In this document: in pieces, positions 1 to 30,687 of the stretch
Position numbering within the stretch: the stretch's first letter is position 1
Layout of the letters: each line of letters begins with the position of its first letter
Assembly: GCA_031283515.1 (NCBI GenBank)
Contig: JAITBS010000077.1
Coordinates: 1 to 54,587 of the forward strand
Reading direction: 5' to 3'
DNA: 54,587 nucleotides
Source: Planctomycetaceae bacterium
Lineage (GTDB): Bacteria; Planctomycetota; Planctomycetia; Pirellulales; Thermoguttaceae
Translations under genes and position numbers: made by a program
The notes under the pieces: generated by a model
What the model was told of the DNA's origin: nothing
Database searches by the model: none
What the model saw: the letters and a program-made list of their open reading frames with translations, nothing else

Positions 1-21
1 GTGAAAATGAGGTCGGTTTTT

Positions 22-237
22 AGTTGATAGTGGAGAGTTCGCACGCGGATTCAAAACGTTTTGGTCGTAATCCGCTTGCGAACTATCCACTCTCCACTAT
101 CAACTCTCAACTATTCCATTGCCCTTTCAGGGCGTTGGGTTGAAGAGGAGTTTTTACCCACCCCGTTGGGGCGGGTTATAATCCTGACGCCCCTATCGGG
201 GCTAATGGGAAAAACAATAATTCCACTGATAGATTAC
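22..237. repeat. Composite intergenic repeat: heptamer-arm palindrome (22-117), short GC hairpin modules, then the terminal motif TTCCACTGATAGATTAC (221-237)
   Basis: AGTTGAT/AGTGGAG arm, core CGCACGCGGA...TCCGCTTGCG, complementary ACT-type arm. Hairpins GCCCTTTCAGGGC, CACCCCGTTGGGGCGGG and CCCCTATCGGGG. The reverse complement of the 115-237 part recurs at 41851-41970. Confidence 0.7.
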
Positions 238-280
238 AAAACATCAATTAAATGACTACATGAAATATCGTTCTCAATCG

Positions 281-3200
281 TCAATACGAAATTAACACAA
301 ACGGTTCAAATAATCCGTAACCAATAGTGTCGTAACTTGCGCCGCTTGGTTGGTGTTCCGGTGCGCGATGGAAGGCGTTGGGCCACGCTTGTCCGCGCAT
401 TGCTCCGGCGTGGTGTGGTCCCAACAAATTTTTCGGCGTTCCGTAAACAATCATCGAAATTTCATTGTTACCTTCACGCAATAATTTTGTTACTTCAATA
501 GACTGATTCGCAGAAATAAAAAATCCTGCCGATTGACCATTGACCATAATTTGTACCGTCGAACCATGAACACTCCAATTCAAACCTTTCGGAGTTAGCG
601 GAAATCCTACAAAATAATTTTTTGCCGAATCAATTTTTTCAACATTAAATGTCTGCGAATATTCAACTTTACCCGCATAAAACGGCATACCCTGTTGATT
701 CCATGTCGGTTTGAACGCATTGAAACCGCTGCCGTCAGCAAGATACGACGCCTTGCGGTCATGAGAATCAGTCACCAACTCGCTTGATGTTCTTACCAGA
801 ACATTTTTGATCAAGGTAAGTACATTGTTTTCCTTCGTCCAAAATTGAACTTCGGCAAGTCCGACAAAACCATTGTCTTTCGGTTGTTCGTTTTCCCGAA
901 TCGGATAGGTTGCGCCGTTGTGATTGGAGAGAATTTTGAACGTTATTGTTTTGAATTTTTGTGACGAATTGAACGGCAATTCATAAGCCGAACCGTCGCC
1001 AATCGGTAAATCAATTTTGCCCAATCCGGTAATCTCAACCGTTTTCACTCCGCGTTGTTTCAGATTCCGCTCGTTGTAATTCCAAATCCGAATCGCCGCA
1101 ATTTCTTGTTCCCGACCGAAATCAAATTCCAATGTCGGTGAACGATCAACCAATTCCGGTTTATCAGAACGAAAATCAACTCCCGCCGAAAGCCACGCAA
1201 CATGATCCGGTTCCTCGTTGTGATTAAGAGTCTTATTACTGTCCGGAAAATTCATGGACAAATCCTGCGGAGGAACAACCGTAAATCCCTTTTCAGAATT
1301 TTGAAGCGAAAAATCACCGAGCAAATATGCCGGTTCGAGTTCGTGTTCAATCGTCATCGGTTGCGCAACAATTTTAACATTGTTTTCGCCGACTTTGGCA
1401 ACTTGGGACAAATCAATCTTGCCGAATGCCTTATCAAGCCACCACGCATTCGGAATCGCTTGCACTTCTTTATCGTTGCAATAAATCCTGTACAAATCGG
1501 GACGTTCAATCACAACCGCAAGATTTTTCGGAACCGATTCTTGCAACGTAAAATGATAAGTTGCCTCAAACCCGCTGTTTTCGGGGAATTTTTTCGTGAT
1601 CAATTCGTCTTTGAACTGAACCTGACTATCCCAAGGATTGCCCGACTCCATGCCGTGTTTTTGAAACACAAAACGGTTTGCCGCCCACGTGTAAATGTCT
1701 TGACGTTCTTCATTGCCGACTTTCACGTCAACATAATCCAATGTCAACACATTGTCCTCAAGACGGCGAATTTTCGTTTCCGAAATTGATCGAATCATAT
1801 CCCAGTCGATATTCCTTCGCCACATATTTTGTTCGCCTATTGCCTTATTCGAAAAGATTAATAACAGGCTTCCGGATGGATAGAGAGGAATTGAAAAATT
1901 GTAACTTGAGTTGTCCCATTCTTCGGCTCTCACCATTTCGCCCGTTTCTAAAGAACAAAAATACCAAAACTTAAAAAAGGGATAATTTTCGTTTGGCTTA
2001 ATGGAAACTTGGGCTTCGTCCGTCTGACTGGAGTTACAAAAAAACAACACTTCACCATCCGCAAACCTACGTCGATGATGAAAAATATGTTTAGCATCTT
2101 TTTCACGATAGGTTGCTTCTGTTGTTAAAGGATATGTTGTTATTGTTAAACCGTCTTTGTTGGTTCGTTCTTTTGCAATTTCAACAGCGTCCTTAACGGA
2201 ATGTATTGTGAACTTAAAATGGGTTGTTCCTTCTTTTACACCGCGTCTCCTGTCTCTATTCGTAACTTTTTTATGAGACACCTTAAACACATTCGCATCT
2301 TTCGGAGATGCGCCGTCACACAAATTCGGTTCCGTCTCAACGAGAATCAATTTACCGCCATTATTATGGTACAGCGATAAAAGTTCGGCTGTTTCACTAT
2401 TTAGATTTTCCGTATTGGGCGGAATAATCACCATATCATATTTTGCTTGATTGATGATAAATTCCTTGCCTTTAATTTTTCCGAAACGTTTAATAATATC
2501 TTCCGACGCTAGGTCATATTCGACGTGAGCGTGTTCGAGGGCGTTGACGAAATCGGTGAATGATTGCCCGATTTCATTGAGTTTCGGGTCGCCTTGATAC
2601 ATCCATGCGGTTGTTGTCGGTTCGATAACAACAATACGATTCACTTGCCGGCCTTGTGAAAGCATGTACGATAATCGTGTAAAATAATCCGCCAGAATGT
2701 GATAACCTTCAAACCACGATGCGTGATACGAAAATGATTGCGGATGATCGCGTTTTCGTGCGCCTTTAATTGTTACGTAAGACAAATGTTCGTTGTTCGT
2801 GTTGACTCCCAAAGCGTAAGACCAATCACCAAGCCGTTTTAAGTCTTCGAAACGAATATCCCAACCGCCCGCGCCGTAATTTTCCGAAAGTGTACGAGAA
2901 TGTCCCATCTGATTCGCAACCGACGCCAATTCCTTCACACTTCGGACGTTACCGAATTGAGCGTTTGGCGATTTATCGTTATACGTATTCATCAGCAAAT
3001 CAATTGCCGGACGTTGCGACCAAATGTACATTGCCATATTATCGGGACCATGCGATGTGTTGGGCCAGCCGTGTTCCCAATAATGTCCCGTAAATTCCAA
3101 ACCGTATTTTTCGCAACGTTCAAAATACGGTTTCGCCCAACGTTCAGCAAACAACTCAAGAATCAACTGATGATAATTATGTCGAACTTTTTTCCAGTCG

Positions 3201-4144
3201 CCGACCGTTTTTGACAACGACGGCAAATTGTCGATCAACGAATAACCGAAACGTTTTTCAAACAAATCAGGAATTTCGCCGTTCCATGTAACCCAAGTTC
3301 CGACATAGGAACCGGCTGGATGCGGTTCATCGGTGAAGATTCCGGGAACACGATTACCGAATTCTTTTTGAATTTCGGGAACGTTTTTATAAGCATCAAG
3401 AGTAATATCAAGAAATTTTTCCGTAACGCCTTTTTTCAAGAGATCAACATACCATTTTCCGCCGAACCAACCGCCTTGCGGTGTGTACTGAACTTTTCCG
3501 AGCAGATATTTTTTGCCGTTTGGCAATGGTTCGAGTTTACCGGAATTTTTTGTTTCGCCGGTGATGTTTTTATACGAAATATTGTTATCTTGATTGTTAT
3601 CTTTATTATTATCTTGATTATTATCTTGCGGGCAAAAAACGTACCGGATATTTTTGTCCAACTGATCCAATTTCGTAACTTCCTCAAATTTCAATCCCAT
3701 TCCGCGTGAATCGGGCAATGCTTCAGGAACAAGTCCTCCGGCAAAACCGCTTGGGTAGGAATTTTCGTCGTAAATCCAGACATTCATATCAAGTTTTTGC
3801 GCTTCGTCGAGTGCGGTTTTCCAACGGGCGAACCATTCGTCGGAGAGGTAAGGCGTCATCAAACCGGGTCTTGGGTGAACCCAAACTTGCCGGACATGTT
3901 GTTGAGCGAGATCGCGAAGTGTTCCGCGAACTTGTTCATCGGTTAATCGGTCATTCCAAGTCCAAAGCGGACCGGTACTGAAATCACGCGGCGGATTCTT
4001 AAAATTTTTCTGTAACTCCTCCAAAGTCGGATTTGTGATCGGGTTCAGTTTTGAGATTTGCGCCGCAGCAGTTACAACGTTAAGAAAAAATACAGCAACA
4101 AAAATAATCGCCGCAACCAACAATCTGAAAAAATTTGTTCTCAT
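281..4144 (-). CDS. Large secreted glycoside-hydrolase-like protein (N-terminal signal peptide, TIM-barrel-like N-domain, discoidin/F5-8-type-C-like segment)
   Basis: Uninterrupted 1287-aa ORF. Hydrophobic N-terminus LLVAAIIFVAVFFLNVVTAAAQ. Motifs WTWNDRL...VWVHPRPG...WIYDENSYPSGFAGG recall GH106/GH2-sugar-binding-annotated proteins. The family assignment comes from memory only. Confidence 0.7.
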   Translation of the reverse strand: MRTNFFRLLVAAIIFVAVFFLNVVTAAAQISKLNPITNPTLEELQKNFKNPPRDFSTGPLWTWNDRLTDEQVRGTLRDLAQQHVRQVWVHPRPGLMTPYLSDEWFARWKTALDEAQKLDMNVWIYDENSYPSGFAGGLVPEALPDSRGMGLKFEEVTKLDQLDKNIRYVFCPQDNNQDNNKDNNQDNNISYKNITGETKNSGKLEPLPNGKKYLLGKVQYTPQGGWFGGKWYVDLLKKGVTEKFLDITLDAYKNVPEIQKEFGNRVPGIFTDEPHPAGSYVGTWVTWNGEIPDLFEKRFGYSLIDNLPSLSKTVGDWKKVRHNYHQLILELFAERWAKPYFERCEKYGLEFTGHYWEHGWPNTSHGPDNMAMYIWSQRPAIDLLMNTYNDKSPNAQFGNVRSVKELASVANQMGHSRTLSENYGAGGWDIRFEDLKRLGDWSYALGVNTNNEHLSYVTIKGARKRDHPQSFSYHASWFEGYHILADYFTRLSYMLSQGRQVNRIVVIEPTTTAWMYQGDPKLNEIGQSFTDFVNALEHAHVEYDLASEDIIKRFGKIKGKEFIINQAKYDMVIIPPNTENLNSETAELLSLYHNNGGKLILVETEPNLCDGASPKDANVFKVSHKKVTNRDRRRGVKEGTTHFKFTIHSVKDAVEIAKERTNKDGLTITTYPLTTEATYREKDAKHIFHHRRRFADGEVLFFCNSSQTDEAQVSIKPNENYPFFKFWYFCSLETGEMVRAEEWDNSSYNFSIPLYPSGSLLLIFSNKAIGEQNMWRRNIDWDMIRSISETKIRRLEDNVLTLDYVDVKVGNEERQDIYTWAANRFVFQKHGMESGNPWDSQVQFKDELITKKFPENSGFEATYHFTLQESVPKNLAVVIERPDLYRIYCNDKEVQAIPNAWWLDKAFGKIDLSQVAKVGENNVKIVAQPMTIEHELEPAYLLGDFSLQNSEKGFTVVPPQDLSMNFPDSNKTLNHNEEPDHVAWLSAGVDFRSDKPELVDRSPTLEFDFGREQEIAAIRIWNYNERNLKQRGVKTVEITGLGKIDLPIGDGSAYELPFNSSQKFKTITFKILSNHNGATYPIRENEQPKDNGFVGLAEVQFWTKENNVLTLIKNVLVRTSSELVTDSHDRKASYLADGSGFNAFKPTWNQQGMPFYAGKVEYSQTFNVEKIDSAKNYFVGFPLTPKGLNWSVHGSTVQIMVNGQSAGFFISANQSIEVTKLLREGNNEISMIVYGTPKNLLGPHHAGAMRGQAWPNAFHRAPEHQPSGASYDTIGYGLFEPFVLISY

Positions 4145-4168
4145 GTTTTTTTACAGGTTAAAGTTTTT

Positions 4169-4380
4169 GTAATCTATCAGTGGAATCTTCGTCAATTTGT
4201 TTACCAATGGACTCCAAAGGTAGGTCGCAACGGTTGGTTTTTAATTTTCCGTCCGTCAACAGGGTCAAGTCGGCGAGTACGCCGACCGACCTTTCGGCGA
4301 AAGGTCGCCTACCTTTTAGATGCCTACTTTTTAATTTCCAACAGTAAACCAATTCAAAAAAAATTCCACTGATAGATTAC
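4169..4380. mobile_element. MITE-like non-coding element with 18-bp terminal inverted repeats GTAATCTATCAGTGGAAT / ATTCCACTGATAGATTAC
   Basis: Perfect TIRs at 4169-4186 and 4363-4380. The interior is made of short hairpin modules (GTCGGCGAGTACGCCGAC, CCTTTCGGCGAAAGG) shared with 43847-44214 and 36355-36430. It fills the whole intergenic gap. Confidence 0.7.
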
Positions 4381-5100
4381 TTATTTTTTGAACCAATTTT
4401 CGATTTTTCCTTTGACGGAACGGTTATATTCTTTTCTCATGGGCATTGATTCGATGATTTGCGTAAAAGTTTGTGTATTGACAAGTTCGAGGGACAATTT
4501 GTAATCGCGTTGCATATCACGATTGATTTCGGTTGTTCCAGAGGTGATTTTCGCGAAAAGCAAATAATCAACCGGAGTTCCGCCTCGTCCCATTGCTCCG
4601 GTAAACATCCGCATATTTTCTTCAATAAACAAATCGTCAGGACGTAAACTAAGTGTACGAAGACCAGCAGTTACCGCCCGATCACTAACAATTTCAAATT
4701 GGTCGGATTCTGAAACTTTTTCAAGAATTGCCGTTTTGATATGTTCTTTGAAATCGCCAAGTTCCTCAACACTGGCATTTTCCAAACTGATAAAACACAC
4801 TTTCCGTTTTAGCGGAACCGGCATCATACTGTTGTTGAACGTCACTTGCTGAATCGGTTCACCGGCAGCACGCGCAAGAAGTTTACCAACCGCTTCCCGA
4901 ACCATCGGATTATAAACTTCCGCTCCCGCCCGATCACTGCCAACATTGTCGGATTCGCCGCTGCGCATCAGCCGCGCCTGAGTTCCACGACATCCGCAAA
5001 TCAGTAAAATAATAAATCCAAAACAAATAAATCTTCTTAATATTCTCATTGTTTGTTGGCGGTTTTCTGTTTTTGATGTGTTCATTTTTGATTCTTTCAA
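4381..5100 (-). CDS. Putative lipoprotein (possible LpoB-like fold; function unknown)
   Basis: 239-aa ORF with signal peptide and lipobox-like ILLICGC. The LpoB-like similarity is a weak impression only. Confidence 0.65.
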   Translation of the reverse strand: MKESKMNTSKTENRQQTMRILRRFICFGFIILLICGCRGTQARLMRSGESDNVGSDRAGAEVYNPMVREAVGKLLARAAGEPIQQVTFNNSMMPVPLKRKVCFISLENASVEELGDFKEHIKTAILEKVSESDQFEIVSDRAVTAGLRTLSLRPDDLFIEENMRMFTGAMGRGGTPVDYLLFAKITSGTTEINRDMQRDYKLSLELVNTQTFTQIIESMPMRKEYNRSVKGKIENWFKK

Positions 5101-5164
5101 CTAAAAACAAATGCTCTGAAATAATTGAGACAAACCCTTAAACATATCGTTTTGTACATTTAAT

Positions 5165-5758
5165 TTAGGTATTGATCTCAATGGATACGTCCACCAAATC
5201 ACGTAACTCCTGCACCAAAAATGGAACACGATCTTGATGTAACGTAAGAATAAATGTTCGTGGAATCTGATGAGTGATGTGGAATCGAATCAATCTTGAC
5301 GTATCGTGTTGCATTTTGGGAGTGGCGTAATCAAAGTTTTCGAGTACCAAAATAGTGGGTCGTTGACTGGTTTCGTCTTCAAGAATACGATCACAAAGCC
5401 GTTGCCAAAGGATGGCGCGGTTAATGAATGGTGAATCGGTTTTGGGATTATTTTTTAATATCATTGGCAGATTAATGCGGAAAGTTCGTTCGGATTGTGA
5501 ATCTTCCAACGCCGAACAAAACACGCCCGACAAGGTCGCTTCACCAAAATCCTGAATGTCCAACGAAATAAATTGTCCGTTTTTTTCCTGAACAAACTCA
5601 TGGATTTTTTCGAGAAAATCCCACTCAGCATAGCAAGGTGAATCGTTGTGTAAAAGAAATCCGAGATGTTTGGATTGGTCTGTCAGAGATTGAATTTCAT
5701 TAAACAGATTACGGTCAAATATTTCCGTAATTTTTTGAGGCGAAACAAGTAAAGCCAT
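5165..5758 (-). CDS. Hypothetical protein, possibly a degenerate P-loop/AAA-like fold
   Basis: 197-aa ORF. TILVLENFDYATP resembles a Walker-B region, but no Walker-A GxxGxGK is present. Confidence 0.55.
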   Translation of the reverse strand: MALLVSPQKITEIFDRNLFNEIQSLTDQSKHLGFLLHNDSPCYAEWDFLEKIHEFVQEKNGQFISLDIQDFGEATLSGVFCSALEDSQSERTFRINLPMILKNNPKTDSPFINRAILWQRLCDRILEDETSQRPTILVLENFDYATPKMQHDTSRLIRFHITHQIPRTFILTLHQDRVPFLVQELRDLVDVSIEINT

Positions 5759-5982
5759 AAATATCCTCCTTTAATCACAAATTCATTATATGGGAGTAAA
5801 TTTGTAAATCAAACAATCGCAAACCAAACAATAAAAAGAAATTATGCTAAACATGGCATAATATCTTATGCGTTATAATATATTGATATTAGAATGAATG
5901 GGGGCATCATAACAAAAATCGGAAAATCAGAAAAGATCAATTTTGGCAATTTATGACGCCTATTTACCATTTTACCAGCCGC

Positions 5983-6023
5983 ACTGTGAACACAAAGCAT
6001 ACTGTGAACACAAAGCGTACTGT
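5983..6023. repeat. 18-bp direct repeat ACTGTGAACACAAAGCRT x2.3 in a divergent intergenic region
   Basis: Copies at 5983-6000 and 6001-18, with a partial copy at 6019-23. Confidence 0.6.
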
Positions 6024-6118
6024 CTATTTTATCAACGAACAACTCGAATACTGAATTTAAGTAGTCCGTTAATTCTGTATAAATAGTCCGCAGGTTGCGC
6101 GGATTCTTTAAAAAAGTC

Positions 6119-6322
6119 GTAATCTATCAGTGGAATCTTTTTCTCCTACGCCCTGAACGTAGTTGATAGTTGAGAGTTGATAGTGGAGAGTGGATAGTTG
6201 AGAGTGAATAGTTATGAGTGAATAGTGAATAGTGTCGCAAACGTCCTAATTTACCAAAACGGTATTACTCCGCTTGCGCAACTATTCACTATTCACTATC
6301 AACTATTAACTATTCACTATCC
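6119..6322. repeat. Composite element: left terminal motif GTAATCTATCAGTGGAAT plus a heptamer-arm palindrome
   Basis: About 11 AGTNNNN heptamers, core GTCGCAAACGTCC...CTCCGCTTGCGCAAC, then a complementary NNNNACT heptamer arm. Confidence 0.75.
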
Positions 6323-6364
6323 AGCACTCTTGTAAATTTGAAAACAGTAGGCTAAAATGATTTT

Positions 6365-7852
6365 ATGAAAAAGTTATACTCTCGAAAAAACCATTATATT
6401 GGTGTCGATGTTGGCGGCACAAAGATTCAGGCTTCTTTGATTACTGAATTTGGTTCGGTGCTTGCCAACCATCGTTGTGAAACCCCGCGTCCTGGAACTG
6501 CTCAAAACAGCTCCGTTAGCAGCGTTGCTGATCATAACGGCTCTGTCGAAATCACTCTCAATGCCATCGAAGAATCTATCCAAATTCTACTGCATGAGCA
6601 AAATCACACTCTTGATGAAATCGCCGGAATTGGAATTGCGGTTCCCGGAGTGGTGCAACAGGAAACAGGATTGGTTGTCGTAACCCCAAATATGAATCTT
6701 TCCGGAGTGGAACTCGGTCAGATTATGAACAATCGGTTTGGAGTTCCGGTTGCTATCGGTAACGATTGTAATCTTGGAACGCTTGGCGAATGTTGGCTTG
6801 GAAGCGGACGCCATGTTTCATCCTGTGTGGGAATCTTTGTTGGAACCGGTATTGGTGCAGGTATTGTTTTCGACAACCGTATTTTTAGCGGAGCAGGTCA
6901 GGCAGCCGGTGAAATCGGTCATATTATTTCCCAAATACCATGCGAAAATTGGCGAAATAATATCACCACAGCTAAACATAAACAAAGAACAAAATCTTCC
7001 AAAAACCATTTACCGAAATTACCTCGTTGCGGATGTGGTAATTACGGTTGTTTTGAAACATTTGCAAGCCGCACTGCTATGGAACGATTTATCCGTGAGG
7101 CAGTTGAACACGGTGCAAAATCAATGATTACAGAATTAAACGGAGGAAATCTCGATATTATCAAAAGCGGTGCGATTGCCAAAGCTCTCAAAGCAAACGA
7201 TAAAGTCGTAACTCCAATTGTTCGATATGCCGCTCAGGTTATTGGTTACGCCTGTTTGACCATCCGGCATTTGATTGATCCGGAAGTGATTCTGCTTGGC
7301 GGCGGTGTTATTGAAGCCTGCCAGAAATTTATGATGCCGATTATTGATGCGGTTGTTGCGAATGATCAATTACCTTCTGTAGCGGGTAAACGCCGGATTC
7401 TTGTTTCCTCACTTGGAGATAATGCGGTTGTTTTGGGAGCGGTTGCGTTGGTTCGGAGCATCAACGGCTCCAACCCTCTCAAGAAAACACAGCAAATTAT
7501 CCCCAAATATCCCCAACTCCGTTTTATGGCAGAAAATGTTATTTATATTGCAGACGAACCTTATACCAAAGATTTTTTCATTCTTGCCGATGGAACAATT
7601 CAACCAAGATTAAAGTTGCCGAAAAAAAATATTCATAGTTTTCGGCTTAAAGATATTCAAACAGCAACGAATGGCGGTGTTGATTTGATTATTTTGGGTT
7701 CCTCAAATGCGGGTGAAATTGCTCTTTCCGAAAAATGTCATGAGTATCTTTTTCGGCGCGGTATTGATTACCGTATTCTGCCGCTCAACGAAGCCGTTCA
7801 TCTTTACAATACCATTACTGTCCGGCGTTCCGCGATATGGCATTTCTCATAA
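6365..7852 (+). CDS. ROK-family sugar kinase fused to a C-terminal Mth938/DUF498-like domain
   Basis: IGVDVGGTKI, GNDCNLGTLGE and the CGCGNYGCFE zinc motif. The extra ~120-aa C-terminal domain (DLIILGSSNAGEIALSE...GIDYRILP) is assigned from memory. Confidence 0.85.
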   Translation: MKKLYSRKNHYIGVDVGGTKIQASLITEFGSVLANHRCETPRPGTAQNSSVSSVADHNGSVEITLNAIEESIQILLHEQNHTLDEIAGIGIAVPGVVQQETGLVVVTPNMNLSGVELGQIMNNRFGVPVAIGNDCNLGTLGECWLGSGRHVSSCVGIFVGTGIGAGIVFDNRIFSGAGQAAGEIGHIISQIPCENWRNNITTAKHKQRTKSSKNHLPKLPRCGCGNYGCFETFASRTAMERFIREAVEHGAKSMITELNGGNLDIIKSGAIAKALKANDKVVTPIVRYAAQVIGYACLTIRHLIDPEVILLGGGVIEACQKFMMPIIDAVVANDQLPSVAGKRRILVSSLGDNAVVLGAVALVRSINGSNPLKKTQQIIPKYPQLRFMAENVIYIADEPYTKDFFILADGTIQPRLKLPKKNIHSFRLKDIQTATNGGVDLIILGSSNAGEIALSEKCHEYLFRRGIDYRILPLNEAVHLYNTITVRRSAIWHFS

Positions 7853-7958
7853 CAGATCGTTGGGAGCAACCGTTCCGGTTTTCGTGAAAATCCGCAAACC
7901 TCAGCGTAATCTGCGGGCGGGTTCGGTTCTTATCCAAATTATCAGTATTTTATCAGTA

Positions 7959-8399
7959 TTACCGGTCAAGATTGGAACTAATTCGGACAGCTTCGTCACT
8001 TCTCAAGAAGTTTTTATCATTAATTTTGAATTTATCCCAGAATTTTTCTTTTTTTTCTTGAGTTGTTTTGATGCCATTTTCTTGTTGTTGTTGTTGTTGT
8101 TCTTGTTGTTCTTGTTGTTCTTCTTCTCCCGACTTAATGAGTCGTTCCATTTCGCGGTTGCGAACAATATGAACCTGATTCGTCATATTTTCACACTCAC
8201 GATCATGATAAGATCGTAATTCGGAGTTAATCTTACCATGCTGGTAATAGGGTGGCACCTCTTCGATGCGAGTTTTTTTGCGGCTTTCGAGTAAACCGCA
8301 ACCGGACAAGAACACCAAACTCAGTATGCCTAAAAGACTTAGAAAACCCAAAATCATTTCGAGCCGGAAATATCGGAATTGTTTTCTTGGTTTAGACAT
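7959..8399 (-). CDS. Small lipoprotein with a Glu/Gln-rich tract
   Basis: Start moved to the internal ATG (MSKPRKQ...) because of the lipobox FLSGC. Contains a low-complexity EEEQQEQQEQQQQQQ tract. Confidence 0.5.
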   Translation of the reverse strand: MSKPRKQFRYFRLEMILGFLSLLGILSLVFLSGCGLLESRKKTRIEEVPPYYQHGKINSELRSYHDRECENMTNQVHIVRNREMERLIKSGEEEQQEQQEQQQQQQENGIKTTQEKKEKFWDKFKINDKNFLRSDEAVRISSNLDR

Positions 8400-8562
8400 A
8401 GCCCACAATATCTGTATAGCAATAAGTACTAATTTATGATGATTGGAAGAAAAATATTTATTACCGTTATAATCGGCATTTTTTAAAGGAATATTCAAAT
8501 ATCAAAACAAATTTGTCAGTATTCACAAAGTTTTTATAGAACCAACCCAACCTGCCTAAATT

Positions 8563-8728
8563 GTAATCTATCAGTGGCATTTTTGTTTTTTTCGATTTTC
8601 ACCCCGACAGGGGCGTGGCAAGTTGATAGTTGAGAGTGGATAGTTGATAGTGTCGCAAGCGGAATTACTGCCGAAATGGTATTACTCCGCGTGCGAACTC
8701 TCCACTATCCAATCTCAACTATCAACTA
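8563..8728. repeat. Composite element: terminal motif GTAATCTATCAGTGGCAT, a CACCCCGACAGGGGCG hairpin and a heptamer-arm palindrome
   Basis: Arms at 8621-8652 and 8695-8728 around core TCGCAAGCGGA...CTCCGCGTGCGA. The last heptamer contains the rsgA stop codon. Confidence 0.75.
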
Positions 8729-9865
8729 CTTATAGCGTATGGTGAGGTAACTTTCATAGCGGCGGAGGTCTAATCGTCCTTCCGCAACCGCGTTTTTGAC
8801 CGCGCAATCATCTTCGTGAGAATGCGTACAATCAGGGAATCGACAACGATTTTCATACGGGCGCAAATCTCGGAATAAACCAAACACTTCTTCCGGTATA
8901 ATATCCCACAACATAAATTCCCGCAAACCCGGTGTGTCCACAACAAAACCTCCAAATGATAACTGATGTAATGCTGCTGTTGTTGTTGTGTGTTGCCCTT
9001 TTTGAGTACTGCCAAGATCGGCAACCCGCAGATTTAACGCCGGATCAATCATGTTGAGAAGCGACGATTTACCCACTCCACTCTGACCCGTCACCACACT
9101 TTCCCGATTAATGAGTTGTTGCCGTAACCGCTCCATCCCAAAACCCGTCTCCGCACTCAGAAGTATGACCTTGTAACCCATTTGGGAATACACCCCAATA
9201 ATCGGTTGCAACTCCGTTTTATTAATCAGATCAATCTTATTAATACAAATAATCGGTTTCACTCCGGTTTGTTCCGCCGTCAAAAGTAACCGATCAATCA
9301 GATTGGGTTTGAACACCGGTTGGTCGGCACTGGCAACAATCAGTATCTGGTCAACATTGGTAACAATCACATGTTTCCGGTGTTTACTTTCTCTCGAAAT
9401 ACTTCCGTGACGCGGTTCGACCCGCTCAATCATCGCCTCGTTCACCCCAGACACAACACCCACAACAGGACGAATAAGAACCCGATCCCCCGTCACAACC
9501 GGTTGCCGTTGCTCGGTGGACATTGTCTTCAGTATCCGGCGCGTCACACTTTGGAATATCCGACCATCGTCCGTCTGAACAACACTACTCGCCCCATGAA
9601 CACATAACACCCGACCAAATAACACCACTCCACTACTCGACTCAGGAAGAATCGTAAACCCATATTCCTCACCAGATTCAACCCACTCGCCAATAACCGT
9701 TCGGCGACGCGATAATTCACTCTTACCGCCAATCCGTTCCACAGATATTTCCGATTCCTCTTCAAAACCGTGTTCCTCAAAACGTTGTGTCCAGTCATCA
9801 ATTCGAGTTCGTTTGGATCGGTTCTTACGGAATGTAACACGGAGTTTTTTCGGTTTTTTCATCAC
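8726..9865 (-). CDS. rsgA: Ribosome small-subunit-dependent GTPase A
   Basis: Circularly permuted GTPase motifs (NKIDL ... GQSGVGKSSLLN) and the C-terminal zinc motif CRFPDCTHSHEDDCAV. Confidence 0.9.
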   Translation of the reverse strand: MMKKPKKLRVTFRKNRSKRTRIDDWTQRFEEHGFEEESEISVERIGGKSELSRRRTVIGEWVESGEEYGFTILPESSSGVVLFGRVLCVHGASSVVQTDDGRIFQSVTRRILKTMSTEQRQPVVTGDRVLIRPVVGVVSGVNEAMIERVEPRHGSISRESKHRKHVIVTNVDQILIVASADQPVFKPNLIDRLLLTAEQTGVKPIICINKIDLINKTELQPIIGVYSQMGYKVILLSAETGFGMERLRQQLINRESVVTGQSGVGKSSLLNMIDPALNLRVADLGSTQKGQHTTTTAALHQLSFGGFVVDTPGLREFMLWDIIPEEVFGLFRDLRPYENRCRFPDCTHSHEDDCAVKNAVAEGRLDLRRYESYLTIRYK

Positions 9866-10031
9866 CGTTCAGCTTGGTTTTGGTAATTCTTAATTTTAAC
9901 AAATGCCCCTTTTATAACCAACTCTCGATCCATAAACTCTGCCCAGCCTCAAATTATCACCCACAAAAATCAGTATAACCAATGTCAGAAAAAAATCAAT
10001 CGCCAGTTTTTGAATAGATAGTTTAGGTAGT

Positions 10032-10192
10032 TGATAGTGGATAGTTGATAGTGGATAATTGAGAGTTAATAGTGAATAGTGTCGCAAGCGGAGTAATACC
10101 ATTGCGGCAATAATCCGCTTGCGAAACTACTAACTATTCACTACTAACTATTCACTACTAACTATTCACTACTAACTATTCACTACTAACTA
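10032..10192. repeat. Heptamer-arm palindrome; the right arm is a 14-bp tandem (ACTACTAACTATTC x ~4.8)
   Basis: Core TCGCAAGCGGAGTAATACC...AATCCGCTTGCGA. The right arm abuts the ATG at 10193. Confidence 0.75.
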
Positions 10193-10645
10193 ATGCCGAT
10201 TCCTTTATTTCTTATTGTTCCGGATCGCCGGTTAATTCGGGCAATTCATGTTGCCGACGAACAGCACCAGTTCGAAATCACCCGCTTTCGCTCACTTCAA
10301 CACGCCCTCGAAAAAGGAAATACCGATAAAAATTCGCCAAGACTTCTCATTGTTCAATGGAATAGCGAAGACATTCTAAAAGAACTCGCCCAAAATAAAT
10401 CCTTCAATCCCATACCTTATTCTTCGCGTCTTATCGTTTATTATCCGGAACTTTCACAAAAAACGCCCGCCGAAGGTGAAGAAATCCGTTTCGCTCTCCT
10501 CCAACTCAAAATAATCACCGTTTTTTCGCAACTTCGTGAACTCCCCTCTGTCCTTGACATCGCCCAACATTACGCCAACCGCTTCACAACTCCGCAAAAA
10601 CAATGGACTCAAATCATTGACGACACGTTGCCCTGGAAAAAATAA
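10193..10645 (+). CDS. Hypothetical protein
   Basis: 150-aa ORF with no recognisable motif. There is no SD sequence, and the repeat arm abuts the start codon. Confidence 0.45.
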   Translation: MPIPLFLIVPDRRLIRAIHVADEQHQFEITRFRSLQHALEKGNTDKNSPRLLIVQWNSEDILKELAQNKSFNPIPYSSRLIVYYPELSQKTPAEGEEIRFALLQLKIITVFSQLRELPSVLDIAQHYANRFTTPQKQWTQIIDDTLPWKK

Positions 10646-10751
10646 AGTCAACTCAATTCCAAAAAATCGTAATTTAATAGAACATCAATCAACTGAATGC
10701 AAGAAGAATAAAAATATTATCGGGACGAAATTCTAATATTTCTTTATTGTT

Positions 10752-11666
10752 TTATTTTTTGGGCGAACAGAGTTCACACGAATTCAATCCGCAACAACAT
10801 TCCGTTAAACGGGCAAGATAATGAATATTGTCTCCGGCACCTTGAAAACCAATAACACGTTTATCAATAGTGGTTTCTTGACGAATAAAATGTCCGGCGT
10901 CAAGATCAAGTTCCATTTTACCGGATAAAAATTTGTCAAGGATTTGCGATTCTTCTTTGGGCGTCAGAGGAGTCAATATTCTTGTAGCGAATTTGATCAC
11001 CGCAATACCGGAATGAACACCGAACAATGTAAATTCTTGTCTTGTATTGATTTTTTTAACCGTACCGTTGGACTGTGCAATTTCAACCGGCATTACTTCC
11101 GACCAAGAATCACCGACAGCAACAGGTTCTTTCGGTAACAGAATTACAATACGATTTTCCGTACTTGTACTGCCGGAATAAATTCGAAGCGGTTTTTTGG
11201 AAGTTTTGCCAAGAACGTCAATCGAAATGTGTGCTAAGGGGACACCAATTGTTCCATCAAGATTGATAAATGCGCCGGGAATATTTTTATCCTTTCGGCT
11301 GTTGTACTCTGCGATTTTGGCACCATCTTTATCTGTTTGAAATTGACGCATATTTACATCGTCAACAAGATATTCAAATGTTGCAGTTTCTTTGTTATCA
11401 ACACTAATTACCGTCCAGACTTTGGTTGATCGGCTTGTTGTTTCAACAACTTCTTCAACTCCACTCACCGATGTCCGAATCTTCAACGATTGTAAAACAT
11501 TCCAACGCAGAACATTTCCCTTTTGGAAACGATAACGGAGTAAGTACTTATTAGATTCTGTTGACGAATCAGCATGAACATTTTGAATGTGATCCGAAAA
11601 TAACACAAACAACAAAAAAACTGCCGCGCAAAAAAACGCGGCACAAAAGAAAAAACGTTGCATCAT
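10752..11666 (-). CDS. Hypothetical secreted protein
   Basis: 304-aa ORF with a hydrophobic N-terminal signal-like segment and a Cys-rich C-terminus. Confidence 0.65.
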   Translation of the reverse strand: MMQRFFFCAAFFCAAVFLLFVLFSDHIQNVHADSSTESNKYLLRYRFQKGNVLRWNVLQSLKIRTSVSGVEEVVETTSRSTKVWTVISVDNKETATFEYLVDDVNMRQFQTDKDGAKIAEYNSRKDKNIPGAFINLDGTIGVPLAHISIDVLGKTSKKPLRIYSGSTSTENRIVILLPKEPVAVGDSWSEVMPVEIAQSNGTVKKINTRQEFTLFGVHSGIAVIKFATRILTPLTPKEESQILDKFLSGKMELDLDAGHFIRQETTIDKRVIGFQGAGDNIHYLARLTECCCGLNSCELCSPKK

Positions 11667-11684
11667 AACAGTACAATGAAAAAT

Positions 11685-12125
11685 TTACGTTGATGTTTCT
11701 GTTTCTTTTTTCTTATTTTTGGAACCTCGCCGCGGTTTTTTAACGGTTTTGATTTCTTCGGTTTTCCGTTTGACAGCACGTTCTTTGAGGCGTACTGCCT
11801 TACCGACACGATCTCGCAGGAAATACAATTTTGCACGATGAACAACTGCACTACGAACCGTTTCGATTTTAGCGATTCGTGGGGAATGAAGAGCGAATTT
11901 TCGTTCCACACCTTCACCTGCCACAATCCGGCGGACAGTAAACATTTCCCGTGTTCCGCTTCCGCTTCGGGCAATGACAACTCCGTTGAAAATCTGAATA
12001 CGTTCTTTTTCACCTTCGAGAATACGGCAATGTACATTAACCGTATCACCAATTTCAAACTGTGAAATTTCCGATTGCGGTTTTTTACTTTGTGCCTCAA
12101 CAATATTTATCAATTGGTCACTCAT
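11685..12125 (-). CDS. rplS: 50S ribosomal protein L19 with a Lys-rich C-terminal tail
   Basis: FEIGDTV.V...EG.KERIQ.F.G.VIA..G....E.FTVRR...GEGVER motif set. Confidence 0.95.
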   Translation of the reverse strand: MSDQLINIVEAQSKKPQSEISQFEIGDTVNVHCRILEGEKERIQIFNGVVIARSGSGTREMFTVRRIVAGEGVERKFALHSPRIAKIETVRSAVVHRAKLYFLRDRVGKAVRLKERAVKRKTEEIKTVKKPRRGSKNKKKETETST

Positions 12126-12207
12126 AATTTTGTCTCCATTTGTAACGAATTACTTCGTTATTTATTTTGTTTTGTCTTTGGTTATTGAAAATTGCGAAAA
12201 TAGTGTT

Positions 12208-12930
12208 TCAGTTTTTTGGTGATGAATTACCGGAAGCGGTTACTAATAAGTCGGGTCTTTTTTCTTTTGTTCGTTGTAAACTATTGTTGTTGCGCCATTG
12301 GGCGATTTCGGCGTGGTTTCCGCTCAACAGTATTTCCGGTACGGAAAAACCGCGATATTCTCTTGGTCTTGTGTAATGAGCGCAATCTAAAATTCGGTTA
12401 CCGGTTGAAAAGGAATCAAACCGGTTGGAATCTTCGTCACCCAAAACGCCGCGAATTAATCGCATTACTGTTTCAATGACAACCATTGCCGCAACTTCTC
12501 CACCATTGAGAATATAATCGCCGATGGAAACTTCTTCGGGTTTAAGGATTTCAGCAACACGTTCATCGAAACCCTCATATCTTCCGCAAAGCATTACAAT
12601 CCGTTGTTCTGTTGCGAGTTCCTCCGCAAACCTCTGATTAAAACAACGTCCTTGCGGCGTGAACATCAACAATCGTCCAGGTTGTTGTTGATGCTGTATT
12701 TCTTCAACACAGGGAACAACTCGATCAACTTTGAGCAACATTCCAGGACCACCGCCAAAAGGACGATCATCCATAGTTGCGTGTTTATCGTCTGCCCAAT
12801 CCCGCATATTATGAAGCCGAACTTCGATTTTTTGTGCTGCCAAAGCCCCTTTCAAAACACTTTCCGAAAGAAATCCTTCGAAAATACTGGGGAAAAGTGT
12901 TAAAACATCAAAACAAATTACTGACGGCAT
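12208..12930 (-). CDS. trmD: tRNA (guanine37-N1)-methyltransferase
   Basis: FDVLTLFPSIFEGF..., RPFGGGPGM, CGRYEGFDERV and IGDYILNGGE motifs. Confidence 0.95.
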   Translation of the reverse strand: MPSVICFDVLTLFPSIFEGFLSESVLKGALAAQKIEVRLHNMRDWADDKHATMDDRPFGGGPGMLLKVDRVVPCVEEIQHQQQPGRLLMFTPQGRCFNQRFAEELATEQRIVMLCGRYEGFDERVAEILKPEEVSIGDYILNGGEVAAMVVIETVMRLIRGVLGDEDSNRFDSFSTGNRILDCAHYTRPREYRGFSVPEILLSGNHAEIAQWRNNNSLQRTKEKRPDLLVTASGNSSPKN

Positions 12931-13020
12931 GAACTTTGCTAAACACGGAATCTTGCAAGCAGAACAAATAATACGATGATGATTGATATTTTCTGATTGA
13001 TATTTTGTTCAATACGGGAT

Positions 13021-13461
13021 TTATGTTTCTGTGGGTGTTGTTTCGGTAGTTGTATTATTTTTTTTCTTTTGTTTTGATTTTTTTTGTTGTTGCAGTGGTT
13101 GTTGCTGCAGTTGTTGTGTTTGTGGTTGTGGTGATGATTCGATTGTATAAGTTGAACGTGGGCGGCGATTTACCAAGCGTCCCAATGCCATTTTTTGGTT
13201 TTCGAGATGTGTTCCGTCGAGTCCGTATTTTTTGATGAGTACGGAAACTTTATCAGACGGTTGGGCTCCGACACCGATCCAGTATTTGATACGTTCGCCG
13301 TTCAAAATGGCACGAGCGTCGGTTTCCGATACCATTGGATCGTAATATCCCACCTCTTCGAGTACCCGACCATCACGCGGAGTTCGGGCGTCCATCACAC
13401 AAACACGGAAAAACGGACGATGAAGCCGTCCCATTTTTTTCATACGAATTTTAACTGCCAA
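13021..13461 (-). CDS. rpsP: 30S ribosomal protein S16 with a Gln/Lys/Thr-rich C-terminal extension
   Basis: MAVKIRMKKMGRLHRPFFRVCVMDARTPRDGR...GYYDP. Confidence 0.95.
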   Translation of the reverse strand: MAVKIRMKKMGRLHRPFFRVCVMDARTPRDGRVLEEVGYYDPMVSETDARAILNGERIKYWIGVGAQPSDKVSVLIKKYGLDGTHLENQKMALGRLVNRRPRSTYTIESSPQPQTQQLQQQPLQQQKKSKQKKKNNTTTETTPTET

Positions 13462-13623
13462 CTGTTTTCTCCTTAAATAGTTAAGTAAAAGTAAGAGGAA
13501 TGAATGCCGATAAAATTTTCACTTGACCCAATAAAAAAACTCCCGAATTGGTTCCCAATTCGAAATAACATGTTTTGCCTATTATCACTTACAATCTAGG
13601 GTACGAAAAGGGGGGGCTAAAAA

Positions 13624-13705
13624 AGTTGAAAGTGGAGAGTTCGCATGAGGAGTATTGGCTAAAACGTTCCGGCAGTAATCCTCATGCGAACATTATTCAC
13701 TGTCA
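13624..13705. repeat. Short, degenerate member of the heptamer-arm palindrome family
   Basis: AGTTGAAAGTGGAGAGT-TCGCATGAGGAG...ATCCTCATGCGAAC-ATTATTCACT. Confidence 0.55.
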
Positions 13706-13912
13706 CCCCCAAAATATCCAAATTAACTCGCCATTACACACCAGCCTGTAAGTGTTAGGCTTTTTTTGAAAAAACCATAAATATTGTAAAAGGGGGCGGT
13801 TGTTTTAGAACAAAATTGAATTAGAATGATCACTCACTTAAATTAATTTTCGAATTAGTAGAGAATTTTTTCAAAAAACAAAATATTTTTTTTGTGAGGG
13901 GGGAAATATCTC

Positions 13913-13940
13913 TTGACGGACATTTAGTGTTTACTATAAT
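13913..13940 (+). promoter_or_regulatory. Sigma-70-like promoter (TTGACG-N16-TATAAT)
   Basis: -35 at 13913-13918 and consensus -10 at 13935-13940. Structured sequence lies downstream. Confidence 0.5.
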
Positions 13941-14468
13941 TACTGCCGTATGCTGATGGTATGCGCCGCACGGCAGCGATAAATCGTGTTGAAAAAACAT
14001 GATTTCCCTCTTAAGTTGATGTCCGGTATTGACCGATAACGTCAGAGGTGAATTAAATTTGTTTCGACAAATTTAATTTCTATAAAAGTTGCTCGTAACA
14101 TAGTTTATGTTTGGCGGTCTGTTATTGTACTTTATAAAAACGATATACGTACTTTGCACAAAAACAAACAATAAATAAATCACCGCAACTCTCCAAACAA
14201 CAGAATACAGTTGCTGAAAACACAGAACCAAATTACCACACAAAGAATAGTACAGTCCAGATTATTCAGACAATTCGCTTAAATCAACAAAGAAAAATAT
14301 TCAGAATTGTCTATAATTATACCAATGAAACCGCAATATCCGTTTAGGTTAACACGTTCGGTTTTGCTGAAATTAGTATTTTGTAATTGAATATTTCAAT
14401 TGATTTTTTTAATTTATTACTACTAGATTCGTTAAGGAAGGCGAAAAAGAAGATCACGAGGTGAGCGT

Positions 14469-14684
14469 ATGAAAAACGTATTTGATACGATACTGGAAAC
14501 CGGACATGATGAAGAATTTGTTCCTGTTGTAACCGAAGATTTCCGACCGACAGATGCACCGGCAGGTTCTCCGGCAAAACTGGAAGTTTTGGCAGAACGT
14601 GTTCGTAAGGGCTTACCGCTTTGGCACCCCGAAGATCGGGTCGATTACGCCGGTTTAACCGGAGCAGTGCGGCCGCGAGACTAA
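14469..14684 (+). CDS. Small hypothetical protein (71 aa)
   Basis: ATG preceded by AGGAAGG...GAGGTGAGCGT. Locally higher GC than the surroundings, and a hairpin terminator follows. Confidence 0.5.
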   Translation: MKNVFDTILETGHDEEFVPVVTEDFRPTDAPAGSPAKLEVLAERVRKGLPLWHPEDRVDYAGLTGAVRPRD

Positions 14685-14710
14685 TTGAAATTGTTTTGTT
14701 TTATTTTATT

Positions 14711-14750
14711 ATCGCTAGTAACGGATTCATTCGTTCCTAGCGATTTTATT
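14711..14750 (+). terminator. Putative intrinsic terminator
   Basis: ATCGCTAGTAACGG-ATTCAT-TCGTTCCTAGCGAT stem-loop followed by TTTATT. Confidence 0.45.
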
Positions 14751-14817
14751 GTTATTATTCATTGACAATGAGGTAATAAACAACAGTAACAACCAAATTC
14801 ATTCAACAATTCACATT

Positions 14818-15774: not shown

Positions 15775-15798
15775 TCCAAGACGGGCTCTAATGAATGA

Positions 15799-17232: not shown

Positions 17233-17312
17233 GGGTGAAATAGTACTGTTTGCCCCAAATTTCCGCAAGACCAATTTTGATACTGTTCAAGATATATTTA
17301 CGGAAAGAACAT

Positions 17313-17527
17313 TAATATATTAGTGGAATTATTATTTTTTATTCTTCACCCCAAGCAACTGTGTTTTTGTCAAATGGAAGTGAATAGTTGCGCAAGCGGA
17401 GTAATACCGTTTTGGTAAATTAGGACGCTTGCGACACTATTCACTATTCACTATTCACTCATAACTATTCACTAATACGCTCCTATCGGGGCTAATGGGA
17501 AAAACAAAAATTTCACTGATATATTAC
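17313..17527. mobile_element. MITE-like composite with degenerate termini enclosing a heptamer-arm palindrome
   Basis: TAATATATTAGTGGAAT ... TTTCACTGATATATTAC. The core GTTGCGCAAGCGGAGTAATACCGTTTTGGTAAATTAGGACGCTTGCGAC is the reverse complement of the 6232-6281 core. Confidence 0.7.
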
Positions 17528-17727
17528 AAAATTTTTAATTTTTTTTTTCCTACCACTTCCCAGCCGTACACACATTCGTAGAATACTATACTCAATCCTG
17601 ATAATAATGAAGGGTTATGGCGATGCCGTGTTGGGGACTTCGCAATGAAAACTAAAATATACCAACCATTGGATAGTTACAAAATTTTATAGCGATTTTG
17701 ACTTTTTAAGGAGAAAATAGCCAAACT

Positions 17728-30667: not shown

Positions 30668-30687
30668 CTTGTCCCAGTTTACAGCCG

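Follow-up and report, generated by a model that had tools for sequence, protein, structure and literature searches.

Bacterial heptamer repeats, known since 1990, are over-represented in the intergenic DNA of several phyla. The classic units of the cyanobacterial STRR family, CCCCAGT and CAACAGT, contain an AGT, which is also the anchor of the elements described here. These elements are dispersed palindromes in which two arrays of heptamers converge on a short hairpin-forming core, and they occur in a 54,587-nt contig of a Planctomycetaceae bacterium (JAITBS010000077.1), referred to throughout, at its full length, as the window. One public run, a termite gut metagenome, contains 95% of the sampled window words. 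The elements are clade-specific, multicopy, modular and orientation-independent palindromic repeats with heptamer-array arms that often reach coding boundaries exactly. No description of this family was found in the literature searched.

Among the described systems, cyanobacterial STRRs are close in being intergenic, multicopy tandem arrays with a period of 7, of which inverted sets can form hairpins between co-transcribed genes, as between hupS and hupL (PMC2670836). They belong to another phylum and have other units, and they differ from the window elements in having no known conserved core hairpin and in not being described as a discrete palindromic element of modal size (here ~108 bp, with 5+5 units and the core). 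The TAACTGA repeats of Beggiatoaceae, Cyanobacteria and Bacteroidetes, which lie against start codons (MacGregor 2015, PMC4679880), are similar in several respects. Heptamers of the TAACT type (TAACTAT, CAACTAT and CCACTAT) occur in the window, where a right-arm unit read as TAACTAT or CAACTAT resembles TAACTGA; the arrays end a few nucleotides from start codons and sometimes overlap the end of the upstream open reading frame (ORF); and both kinds of repeat have three-frame stops, lack a Shine-Dalgarno sequence and change in 7-nt steps between strains. However, TAACTGA repeats are direct, consist of 2-6 units, include only one inverted set among 170 and are oriented with respect to the downstream gene (PMC4679880), whereas the window elements have YMACTMT units, a mirror-image partner array and a conserved core, and their orientation is irrelevant. 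The position at start codons is shared.

Heptamer repeats with the unit GGGAATC, some of them inverted, have been described in Xanthomonas (PMC4692102). Like GGGGAYT in Nostoc, they are over-represented in intergenic DNA, some inverted pairs could form stem-loops, and they are kept between the same genes of related species while their length varies (PMC4692102). Unlike the window elements, they are G-rich and quadruplex-forming, have no conserved core and are generally not palindromic. REP, BIME and REPIN sequences resemble the window elements as high-copy extragenic palindromes whose inverted doublets yield long hairpins, as mosaics of modules that insert into one another, and in the GTAG found on one type of outer module (PMC3116915, PMC3733652). 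They differ from the window elements, whose arms consist of a varying number of tandem heptamers and whose core lacks an unpaired GTAG or CGTC; no RAYT was found. MITEs are likewise small, non-coding, intergenic inverted-repeat elements that are present or absent between related genomes. In the window elements, in contrast, there is no target-site duplication and no parent insertion sequence with matching ends, and the 'terminal inverted repeats' are microsatellite-like and variable. Finally, the small dispersed repeats (SDR) of Nostoc, described by Elhai and colleagues in 2008, are very small and reportedly insert into other repeats and hairpins, some of them amid heptamer repeats. They are a possible counterpart of the 42-nt core within heptamer arrays, although the sequences are not known to be related and the phylum differs. 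No described system is known to join a conserved core hairpin and mirror-image heptamer arrays in one discrete dispersed element, and none is known to have been reported from Planctomycetes.

An earlier note on this stretch, made from the sequence alone, had listed 12 dispersed copies or partial copies with period-7 arms, and every listed locus holds them. At all 12, the arrays have a period of 7, with (AGTNNNN)n as the left and (NNNNACT)n as the right arm, and a scan for exact period-7 AGT/ACT anchors returned the same loci with no extras in the window; the coordinates need adjustment in that two copies start at 10029 and 41968 rather than at 10032 and 41972. Tandem Repeats Finder and the anchor-run scans describe the arrays as head-to-tail 7-nt units in intergenic DNA at many loci. 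Exact AGT/ACT runs of at least three units were observed 18 times versus 0.12 expected in 200 first-order Markov simulations (maximum 1), and runs of at least five units 13 times versus none expected in the same simulations. The core 9-mer GCAAGCGGA has nine matches in the window versus 0.2 expected, and all nine lie inside elements. In total the elements make up ~1.3 kb, or 2.4% of the window, which corresponds to about one per 4.5 kb (12 in 54.6 kb).

The core is ~42 nt long and consists of inverted 10-mers, CGCAAGCGGA and TCCGCTTGCG, around a self-pairing spacer of 21-27 nt whose loop mini-hairpin is TACC-GTTTT-GGTA. Its junctions with the arms are symmetric (AGTGT...ACACT) and carry no GTAG or CGTC tag. 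The arm units follow AGT-K-R/T-A-K, the six commonest being AGTTAAT, AGTGGAT, AGTTGAT, AGTGGAG, AGTTGAG and AGTGAAT. The architecture first proposed for the copies, that is, heptamer arms, a conserved inverted core and a mini-hairpin in its loop, is real and dispersed. Both arms with a core or core remnant are found at nine loci (starting at 22, 6161, 8621, 10029, 13624, 17369, 37034, 38344 and 41968); the copy at 18400-18478 has the core and the right arm only, and those at 32769-32817 and 40679-40726 are single arms. Both core halves are exact only in the copy at 10084-10122, and the other copies have one to three changes or have lost one half (37034 and 38344). When folded as single-stranded DNA and compared with dinucleotide shuffles, seven of the eight tested copies were far more stable, with z-scores of -5.6 to -11.9; the exception at 38344-38486 has no significant fold (z = -1.35) because its two arms carry non-matching unit types. 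The suggestion that the arms give TAG/TGA stops in all three frames within ~21 nt from both sides holds for the complete copies at 6161, 8621, 10029, 37034 and 41968. It is not a trait of the family, because relatives use (AGTCAGG)n, which is free of stop codons. Rfam gave no match at gathering threshold over the whole window, and at E <= 1 only plant microRNA-precursor models far below threshold, a sign of generic long hairpins. The view that the elements are unlike described families stands insofar as they are absent from Rfam and from the literature searched, but they are not unrelated to the STRR and TAACTGA heptamer arrays and are often nested in REP-like hairpins.

Given that k-mer depth inside the arms is 100-500 times that of the flanks (16x) in the source run, and that the contigs of an independent k=31 assembly of this run end at every element, the element class is real and highly multicopy in the sample. 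The same class is found in many independent metagenome-assembled genomes (MAGs) and metagenome assemblies. A census of one genome per bacterial or archaeal species, with a half-core plus two ACT anchors as the pattern, returned at least 103 loci. Among the matches listed, about 70 of the 103 loci belong to nine termite-gut 'Planctomycetaceae bacterium' MAGs (Pcl387_bin141, Im510_bin74, Roe453_bin113, Ct408_bin98, Cc175_bin7, Gx481_bin193, Kf353_bin127, Nc350_bin95 and Cd354_bin63), so that the elements are present in at least nine species-level termite-gut Planctomycetaceae MAGs. Matches in other taxa, again among those listed, are nearly all single and without arrays. Two further planctomycete MAGs have genuine copies, the rumen genome RUG11551 (with AGTGAGG and AGTTAGG units) and UBA8133. 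An origin from phages or proviruses was rejected, as all 24 pattern matches in viral contigs were chance matches without arrays.

From the MAG loci we took 68 complete elements, the modal form of which has 5+5 units and a 42-nt core (107-108 bp), with arms of 2 to 14 units. Their core consensus is CGCAAGCGGA-ATTATTGCC-GTTTG-GGTAGTAAT-CCGCTTGCG. The outer 10-mers keep their sequence in all genomes, over a GC range of 40-55%, and the spacer subfamilies group by genome: for 59 of 69, the nearest neighbour comes from the same MAG, in a sample that one MAG dominates. The same core is combined with different arms, namely AGTKRAK in the window (41% GC), AGTCAGR in metagenome locus L117, AGTGAGG in the rumen MAG (L023) and AGTGAAA in Nc350. 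A FlgH probe further retrieved 28 metagenome loci of more distant relatives (FlgH 46-58% identical, GC ~50%), and in 16 of these the flgH-flgI junction was examined. Some palindrome is present at 14 of the 16 junctions and heptamer arrays at nine (Table 1). Tandem Repeats Finder reported 44 period-7 arrays in the distant-relative loci, half of which (22) lack the AGT/ACT anchor, and the anchor-less arrays (AATTGAC, ATAGATG, ATTCTCC) likewise come as inverted pairs. The mirror-image heptamer architecture extends beyond the AGT family. Judging from the sequences compared, period 7, mirror arrangement, intergenic position and often the core are kept across lineages; unit sequence is not, and tracks genome GC.

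Some of the anchor-less inverted pairs in relatives of ~50% GC lie near flgH, in L106 (1715-1862 and 2889-3023), L104 (841-973) and L108 (830-982); the pairs at these sites are AATTGAC/ATTGTCA, ATAGATG/CTATCAT and GAATTGA/ATTCTCC. A separate array, (CTGCCGT)x4-5, is found at or just within the 5' end of flgH in L110 (918-947), L114 (2455-2484), L117 (3994-4023) and L123 (1705-1736), where it may lie in coding sequence.

In many cases a copy is placed exactly at the centre of symmetry of a larger REP-like palindrome, which is built of ~55-nt outer modules, each of which holds a small GC hairpin (GCCCTGAAAGGGC, CCCCGCTAGGGG or TCCCGCAGGGA). Core hairpin and outer GC hairpins alike are short, multicopy, extragenic imperfect palindromes. 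Several classes of outer module exist and are mixed in left and right combinations; one class reads GCCCTTTCAGGGC-GTAG-G, with GTAG right after the hairpin, and the other classes do not. Such modules also flank copies in the window. The span 6119-6322, given earlier as a single feature, comprises the element at 6161-6322, preceded at 6119-6160 not by heptamers but by a truncated outer module that is shared with other genomes, and the class a module at 42086-42140 is ~85-90% identical (by eye) to modules of MAG Pcl387_bin141. Foreign insertions were found within the core of some elements. The nested elements and outer modules together resemble a mosaic of the BIME or REPIN kind, and mosaics of this sort are known from BIMEs and REPIN clusters (PMC3116915, PMC3733652).

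Heptamer counts could be compared at orthologous loci, as the earlier note had recommended, and unit number and type differ between species. Two neighbouring junctions are occupied in all two or three species that cover them (flanks ~82% identical), with different unit types and numbers. In two of these species the left core half has given way to other repeats, 110-230 bp long and partly consisting of REP-like hairpins. Unit number and type differ among orthologous junctions in L013, L019 and L031. A comparison of Im510 with Pcl387 shows junctions at which both species have an element, though its units and spacers differ, and junctions occupied in one species only, where the other has a repeat of another family or no repeat. 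Within one MAG, cores, or segments of core and arm, recur at unrelated loci in identical or nearly identical form. From these comparisons, copies are both long-lived and subject to gain, loss and conversion.

The arms are often unequal and contain runs of one unit type. At the four variable positions, complementarity within an element is 78% versus 64% for shuffled partners (maximum 72% in 1000 shuffles), a figure that is not corrected for genome-specific unit usage. Arm mismatches comprise 109 transversions versus 22 transitions, and there is neither an excess of G-U pairs nor any other wobble signature. Covariation in the core stem is almost absent; of 63 distinct copies, 17 have a mismatch at its central position and two a compensated change there, roughly as expected by chance. 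One core strand folds 8-9 kcal/mol better as RNA owing to G-U pairs; of 10 informative tandem contexts, only 4 have this strand as the transcribed one, and there is no orientation bias. Selection specific to RNA was rejected on these three grounds: the arms show no G-U excess, the core no orientation bias with respect to transcription, and the stem almost no covariation.

The copies are strictly intergenic and often fill the space between an upstream stop codon and a point 0-10 nt short of the following start. An element is present in about a quarter of the window's intergenic regions; by type, five of nine divergent, six of ~30 tandem and none of seven convergent regions are occupied. In the other MAGs, 22 tandem, 10 divergent and 11 convergent contexts were counted, which indicates no general preference. 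Distances to genes follow a bimodal distribution. Of 105 arms next to a stop, 27 fall between -13 and +5 nt of it; of 94 arms next to a start, 14 come within 10 nt of it; and most remaining arms are more than 80 nt away. Several arms themselves supply the upstream stop codon, and in the window the outermost heptamer contains those of rsgA, flgI and flgH. The flgJ-like gene, flgI, cinA and the ORF at 10193 start 0-10 nt from an arm and have no Shine-Dalgarno sequence. Copies occur at four junctions of the flagellar flgG-A-H-I-J operon, and five copies lie between divergent genes. A promoter scan gave only weak 9-of-12 matches, which are produced by the repeat itself.

Table 1 Heptamer-palindrome elements and outer modules of the window, with the flgH-flgI junctions of distant relatives. 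Positions refer to the window; z is for the DNA fold
Feature	Position	Structure	Fold (z)	Neighbouring genes or matches
Element 1	22-117	3 left heptamers, core 40-80 (CGCACGCGGA...TCCGCTTGCG), ~5 right heptamers	-10.2	
Element 2	6161-6322	(AGTNNNN)x11, core 6236-6278 = CGCAAACGTCC-TAATTTACCAAAACGGTATTAC-TCCGCTTGCG (left half CGCAAACGTCC degenerate; right half TCCGCTTGCG at 6269-6278), (NNNNACT)x6	-8.4 (-34.4 kcal/mol)	
Element 3	8621-8728	5+5 heptamers, core 8654-8695	-11.9	rsgA stop codon 8726-8728 (minus strand) within last unit
Element 4	10029-10192	8 left + 10 right heptamers, sole fully exact core (10083-10123)		ORF start at 10193, immediately past right arm
Element 5	13624-13705	short arms, core 13642-13688 with two compensated stem changes (CGCATGAGGA / TCCTCATGCG)	-7.1	
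Element 6	17369-17477	2 left + 6 right heptamers, core 17391-17433, mini-hairpin TACCGTTTTGGTA	-5.6	
Element 7	18400-18478	core 18400-18441 + right arm only		
Element 8	32769-32817	single arm of 6 units		abuts cinA start (32768, minus strand)
Element 9	37034-37172	10+9 heptamers, only right core half kept (CCGCTTGCG, 37103-37111)	-8.3	fills flgI-flgJ gap: flgI stop 37170-37172, flgJ-like start 37027
Element 10	38344-38486	9+5 heptamers, core 38408-38449, left half degenerate; arms non-complementary	-1.35	fills flgH-flgI gap: flgH stop 38484-38486, flgI start 38336
Element 11	40679-40726	single 6-unit arm		directly after flgG stop (40727), 52 nt ahead of flgA start
Element 12	41968-42085	6+5 heptamers, core 42008-42049	-8.7	
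Outer module right of element 1	118-175	small hairpin GCCCTTTCAGGGC (121-134) + second GC hairpin		aligns with 41910-41967
Truncated outer module, class b	6125-6160	CAGTGGAAT...CCTACGCCCTGAA; on opposite strand, REP-like hairpin then GTAG		aligns with L046, L048, L063, L079
Outer module left of element 12	41910-41967	CGCCCTGAAAGGGC at 41954-41967		
Outer module right of element 12, class a	42086-42140	GCCCTTTCAGGGCG at 42091-42104		
Lone hairpin repeat of outer-module type	22617-22670	TTCGATTTTCACCCCGAAGGG x 2.4 copies, no heptamers		
flgH-flgI junction, L117		(AGTCAGG/AGTCAGA)n, ACGCAAGCGG core, (CCTGACT)n		
flgH-flgI junction, L113		(ACTCCTG)6		runs into flgI ATG
flgH-flgI junction, L120 and L123		AGGAGTT/AGGAGTC versus CTCCTAA arrays, no core		
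flgH-flgI junction, L106		TTACGAG/TGACGAA versus TCATTCG/TAACTCG		
flgH-flgI junction, L109 and L105		AGTTAAT-type arrays		
flgH-flgI junction, five loci		GC-rich palindromes, no heptamers		
flgH-flgI junction, L119 and L124		short, empty		

We favour, with moderate confidence, the explanation that the elements are non-coding, non-autonomous, duplicative palindromic intergenic repeats of termite-gut and other Planctomycetes, built of separable modules, the heptamer-minisatellite arms of which are shaped by slippage and arm-to-arm template switching, and which are co-transcribed as intercistronic hairpins. Copies would spread within a genome by a duplicative process that recognizes the core. 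The core is the part most likely to be recognized by whatever copies the element, because its sequence is conserved across genomes of 40-55% GC. By analogy, the arms appear to be ordinary heptamer minisatellites of the STRR or TAACTGA kind, and the patterns of units suggest that they gain and lose 7-nt units via replication slippage. Template switching at quasi-palindromes is an established mutational mechanism. Acting within one molecule, it, rather than selection on RNA, would keep the arms partly complementary, and it would explain why they match without a wobble or covariation signature. A polymerase footprint has been invoked for the excess of heptamers, as quoted in PMC4692102. The arrays would then grow until they meet coding sequence, and as a result many copies would run from a stop codon to a few bases before the next start. 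In operons, the element is necessarily co-transcribed and its long hairpin would bring the stop and the next start together; by analogy, it may plausibly have secondary effects on the stability of the mRNA, on RNase processing or on translational coupling.

Several points weigh against this explanation. The window and the 131 loci retrieved from other genomes yielded neither a transposase or RAYT nor a parent insertion sequence for the elements, and no pair of half-elements encloses an ORF in the sequence analysed. The flanks of 34 complete copies have no target-site duplication and are often inverted-complementary instead; because no such duplication is visible, we infer the copying mechanism entirely. 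The heptamer unit counts of the window come from one assembly alone, and the excess of complementarity between arms is the uncorrected figure given above. Moreover, several orthologous junctions keep the element across species, even across FlgH lineages of ~50% identity, and such retention could mean function rather than parasitism.

A function of this sort would be provided if the elements were dedicated post-transcriptional elements, in which an intercistronic hairpin is selected to couple or tune translation, or to stabilize or process mRNA. A stop in the first unit and a start after the last would allow unmasking by the terminating ribosome, or cleavage by RNase III, and a (YMACTMT)n tract just upstream of starts would regulate translation, as has been proposed for TAACTGA repeats. 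In the flagellar operon, four of the five gaps between cistrons were counted as filled exactly from stop to start, and the conservation of the flgH-flgI junction, with a palindrome in 14 of 16 relatives and heptamer arrays in nine, fits such a role. Starts next to an arm lack a Shine-Dalgarno sequence, as reported for TAACTGA repeats (PMC4679880), and the STRR hairpins between hupS and hupL have been proposed to act in transcript stability or translational coupling (PMC2670836). However, most copies are more than 80 nt from any start or stop, and divergent, convergent and tandem contexts are used alike. The arm mismatches are mostly transversions with no G-U signature, the orientation of the core is independent of the direction of transcription, the flgH-flgI copy of the window does not fold, and none of the RNA runs searched contains the window genome. 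We therefore regard this alternative as unlikely, though conceivable.

It is rather doubtful, in our view, that the arrays, instead of arising passively by slippage, are made or maintained by a dedicated trans-acting system. Such a system would recognize the CGCAAGCGGA core hairpin and add, copy or bind heptamers symmetrically, and machinery of the same type would lie behind the STRR and TAACTGA repeats of cyanobacteria, Beggiatoaceae and Bacteroidetes. It would produce a fixed period and core while unit sequence co-evolves in each lineage. Candidates, to be held with the same doubt, would be a hairpin-specific nuclease or polymerase, or a protein that reads heptads. If the core is indeed the recognition site of a machinery that makes or reads arrays, the elements would be of wider interest.

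Improbable as we judge it, the elements could also be binding arrays in double-stranded DNA. In this scenario, a dimeric protein (of the ribbon-helix-helix omega/ParG type, or nucleoid-associated) would bind one heptad per dimer and polymerize along the converging arrays, with the core as nucleation site, and the complex would organize the chromosome or regulate nearby promoters. There is a precedent in the omega repressor of pSM19035, which binds heptad arrays co-operatively. The period of 7 is strict, and the AGT anchor is invariant while the other four positions drift with lineage and GC, as would be expected if a protein read only some bases of each unit and co-evolved with these. Conservation of the core is in sequence and not by covariation, the element is orientation-independent, and five of the nine divergent, promoter-bearing regions of the window are occupied. 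Against this, no candidate protein was identified, the anchor is missing from 22 of the 44 period-7 arrays of relatives, other MAGs show no such enrichment in divergent regions, and the model does not require the observed complementarity of the arms.

Mobilization by a RAYT (Y1 HUH transposase), with pairs of REP-like GC hairpins as the recognized ends of REPIN-type elements and the heptamers and core as spacer, is quite improbable. Outer modules with small GC hairpins (GCCCTGAAAGGGC and similar) do flank many elements as inverted pairs, and in one class the hairpin is directly followed by GTAG, the tetranucleotide that marks RAYT-associated REPs (PMC3733652; for the REPIN concept, PMC3116915); REPs with a GTAG tag have been reported in the PVC superphylum (PMC3733652). 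But outer modules are missing from most copies in the window and from many in the MAGs, and the module classes are mixed on the two sides. The check for a RAYT that the earlier note had called for was negative: tblastn with E. coli RayT gave no match below E = 2 in the window and the 131 loci (~0.9 Mb, part of the genomes, so that a single-copy gene could lie elsewhere), and Pfam scans of 40 window ORFs gave no Y1_Tnp domain. The window does encode a YhgA-like Transposase_31 protein and a fragment of a DDE transposase, which have no visible link to the elements.

Two other mobile systems were considered and rejected. A composite transposon with element halves as its ends had a lone candidate, L059, which consists of two separate elements. 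An analogy with integron attC sites fails by eye, as the two motifs occupy the opposite arms to those in attC (GTT-type in the 5' arm, AAC-type in the 3' arm), and the genes around the elements are core genes.

A role in transcription termination, which had also been put forward, is unlikely because there are no T-tracts, four copies lie inside one operon and five between divergent genes. Bidirectional intrinsic terminators or transcript insulators could account for the long symmetric hairpins, for the all-frame stops that window units give from both sides and for the many copies directly after stop codons. However, the arms are AT-rich and no T-tract follows the stems, bases 1-20000 contain 29 terminator-like sites of which not one coincides with an element, and relatives use units that lack stop codons, which makes this account as a whole very improbable. 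Finally, that the arrays were created, collapsed or expanded by the assembler is barely credible as an explanation of the class, since the same core and architecture recur at orthologous junctions in dozens of contigs, from at least nine independently assembled MAGs and from JGI metagenome contigs of other samples, even if k=31 short-read contigs break at every element and the unit numbers come from one assembly.

To the known heptamer repeats, the palindromic elements add a new phylum (gut-associated Planctomycetes), a strict palindromic architecture and a core that persists while units change by lineage. The core can be used as bait for a binding or mobilizing protein, as a marker for a census and as a fixed point from which to follow array growth and shrinkage. 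The elements also set the exact boundaries of several essential operon genes, which matters for gene calling, assembly and expression in uncultured symbionts.

According to Pfam, the window encodes the flagellar cluster flgG, flgA, flgH and flgI with a flgJ-like gene, a DUF1559 protein of a type typical of Planctomycetes, and ribosomal, Sec and Tat genes; a search of the window for tRNA and tmRNA genes found none. A cyanobacterial origin, which the heptamers might suggest, was rejected on the flagellar genes, the DUF1559 protein and the matches to Planctomycetaceae MAGs. The DDE fragment flanks the single-arm element 32769-32817 and consists of 82 amino acids of a Rhodopirellula-type transposase of the ISAZ013 family (32839-33087, below the Pfam cut-off). 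An insertion or deletion event beside it may have removed the rest of this element. The YhgA-like gene is located at 25324-26850, where its 3' end and the sequence downstream are duplicated in tandem (375 bp, 1.9 copies, 98% identical), with 12-bp GGAAGAATTGAA repeats inside the duplication.

Other repeats were also observed in the window. The 1.2-kb gap between rpsR (S18) and cinA consists nearly entirely of tandem repeats (30549-31530), with a 21-bp unit repeated 33 times (AAAAACCAGTTGACAATTGGC, equal to three heptamers), a 45-bp unit x2.2 before and a 60-bp unit x2.2 after this array; the flanking units contain hairpins. Between convergent genes, at 36443-36500, a perfect (TATTGTT)x8.3 array is followed by the hairpin AAAACGTTTCGGCGAAACGTT. 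It appears to be multicopy, with a Logan word depth of ~5400 versus 16 in the flanks, as read from a single overlapping bin (from 36500). A second dispersed family, AGTCCGCAGATGAC(R)CAGAT with its inverse AATCTGCGTCATCTGCGGAC, is found at 6083-6110, 31393-31420, 31455-31480 and 36337-36360 as well as in L006 and L015, and in related MAGs it forms tandem or inverted sets at junctions without a heptamer element.

Two genes of the window encode a NifH/frxC-family ATPase (53315-54139; Fer4_NifH, E = 3e-126), for which a nitrogenase iron protein and a related reductase are both possible, and a LarC-type nickel-insertion protein (27118-28416). Near the 5' end of the long secDF gene, an in-frame 18-bp unit is repeated 6.6 times at 19265-19382 (or a 54-bp unit 2.1 times) and codes for an N-terminal protein repeat.

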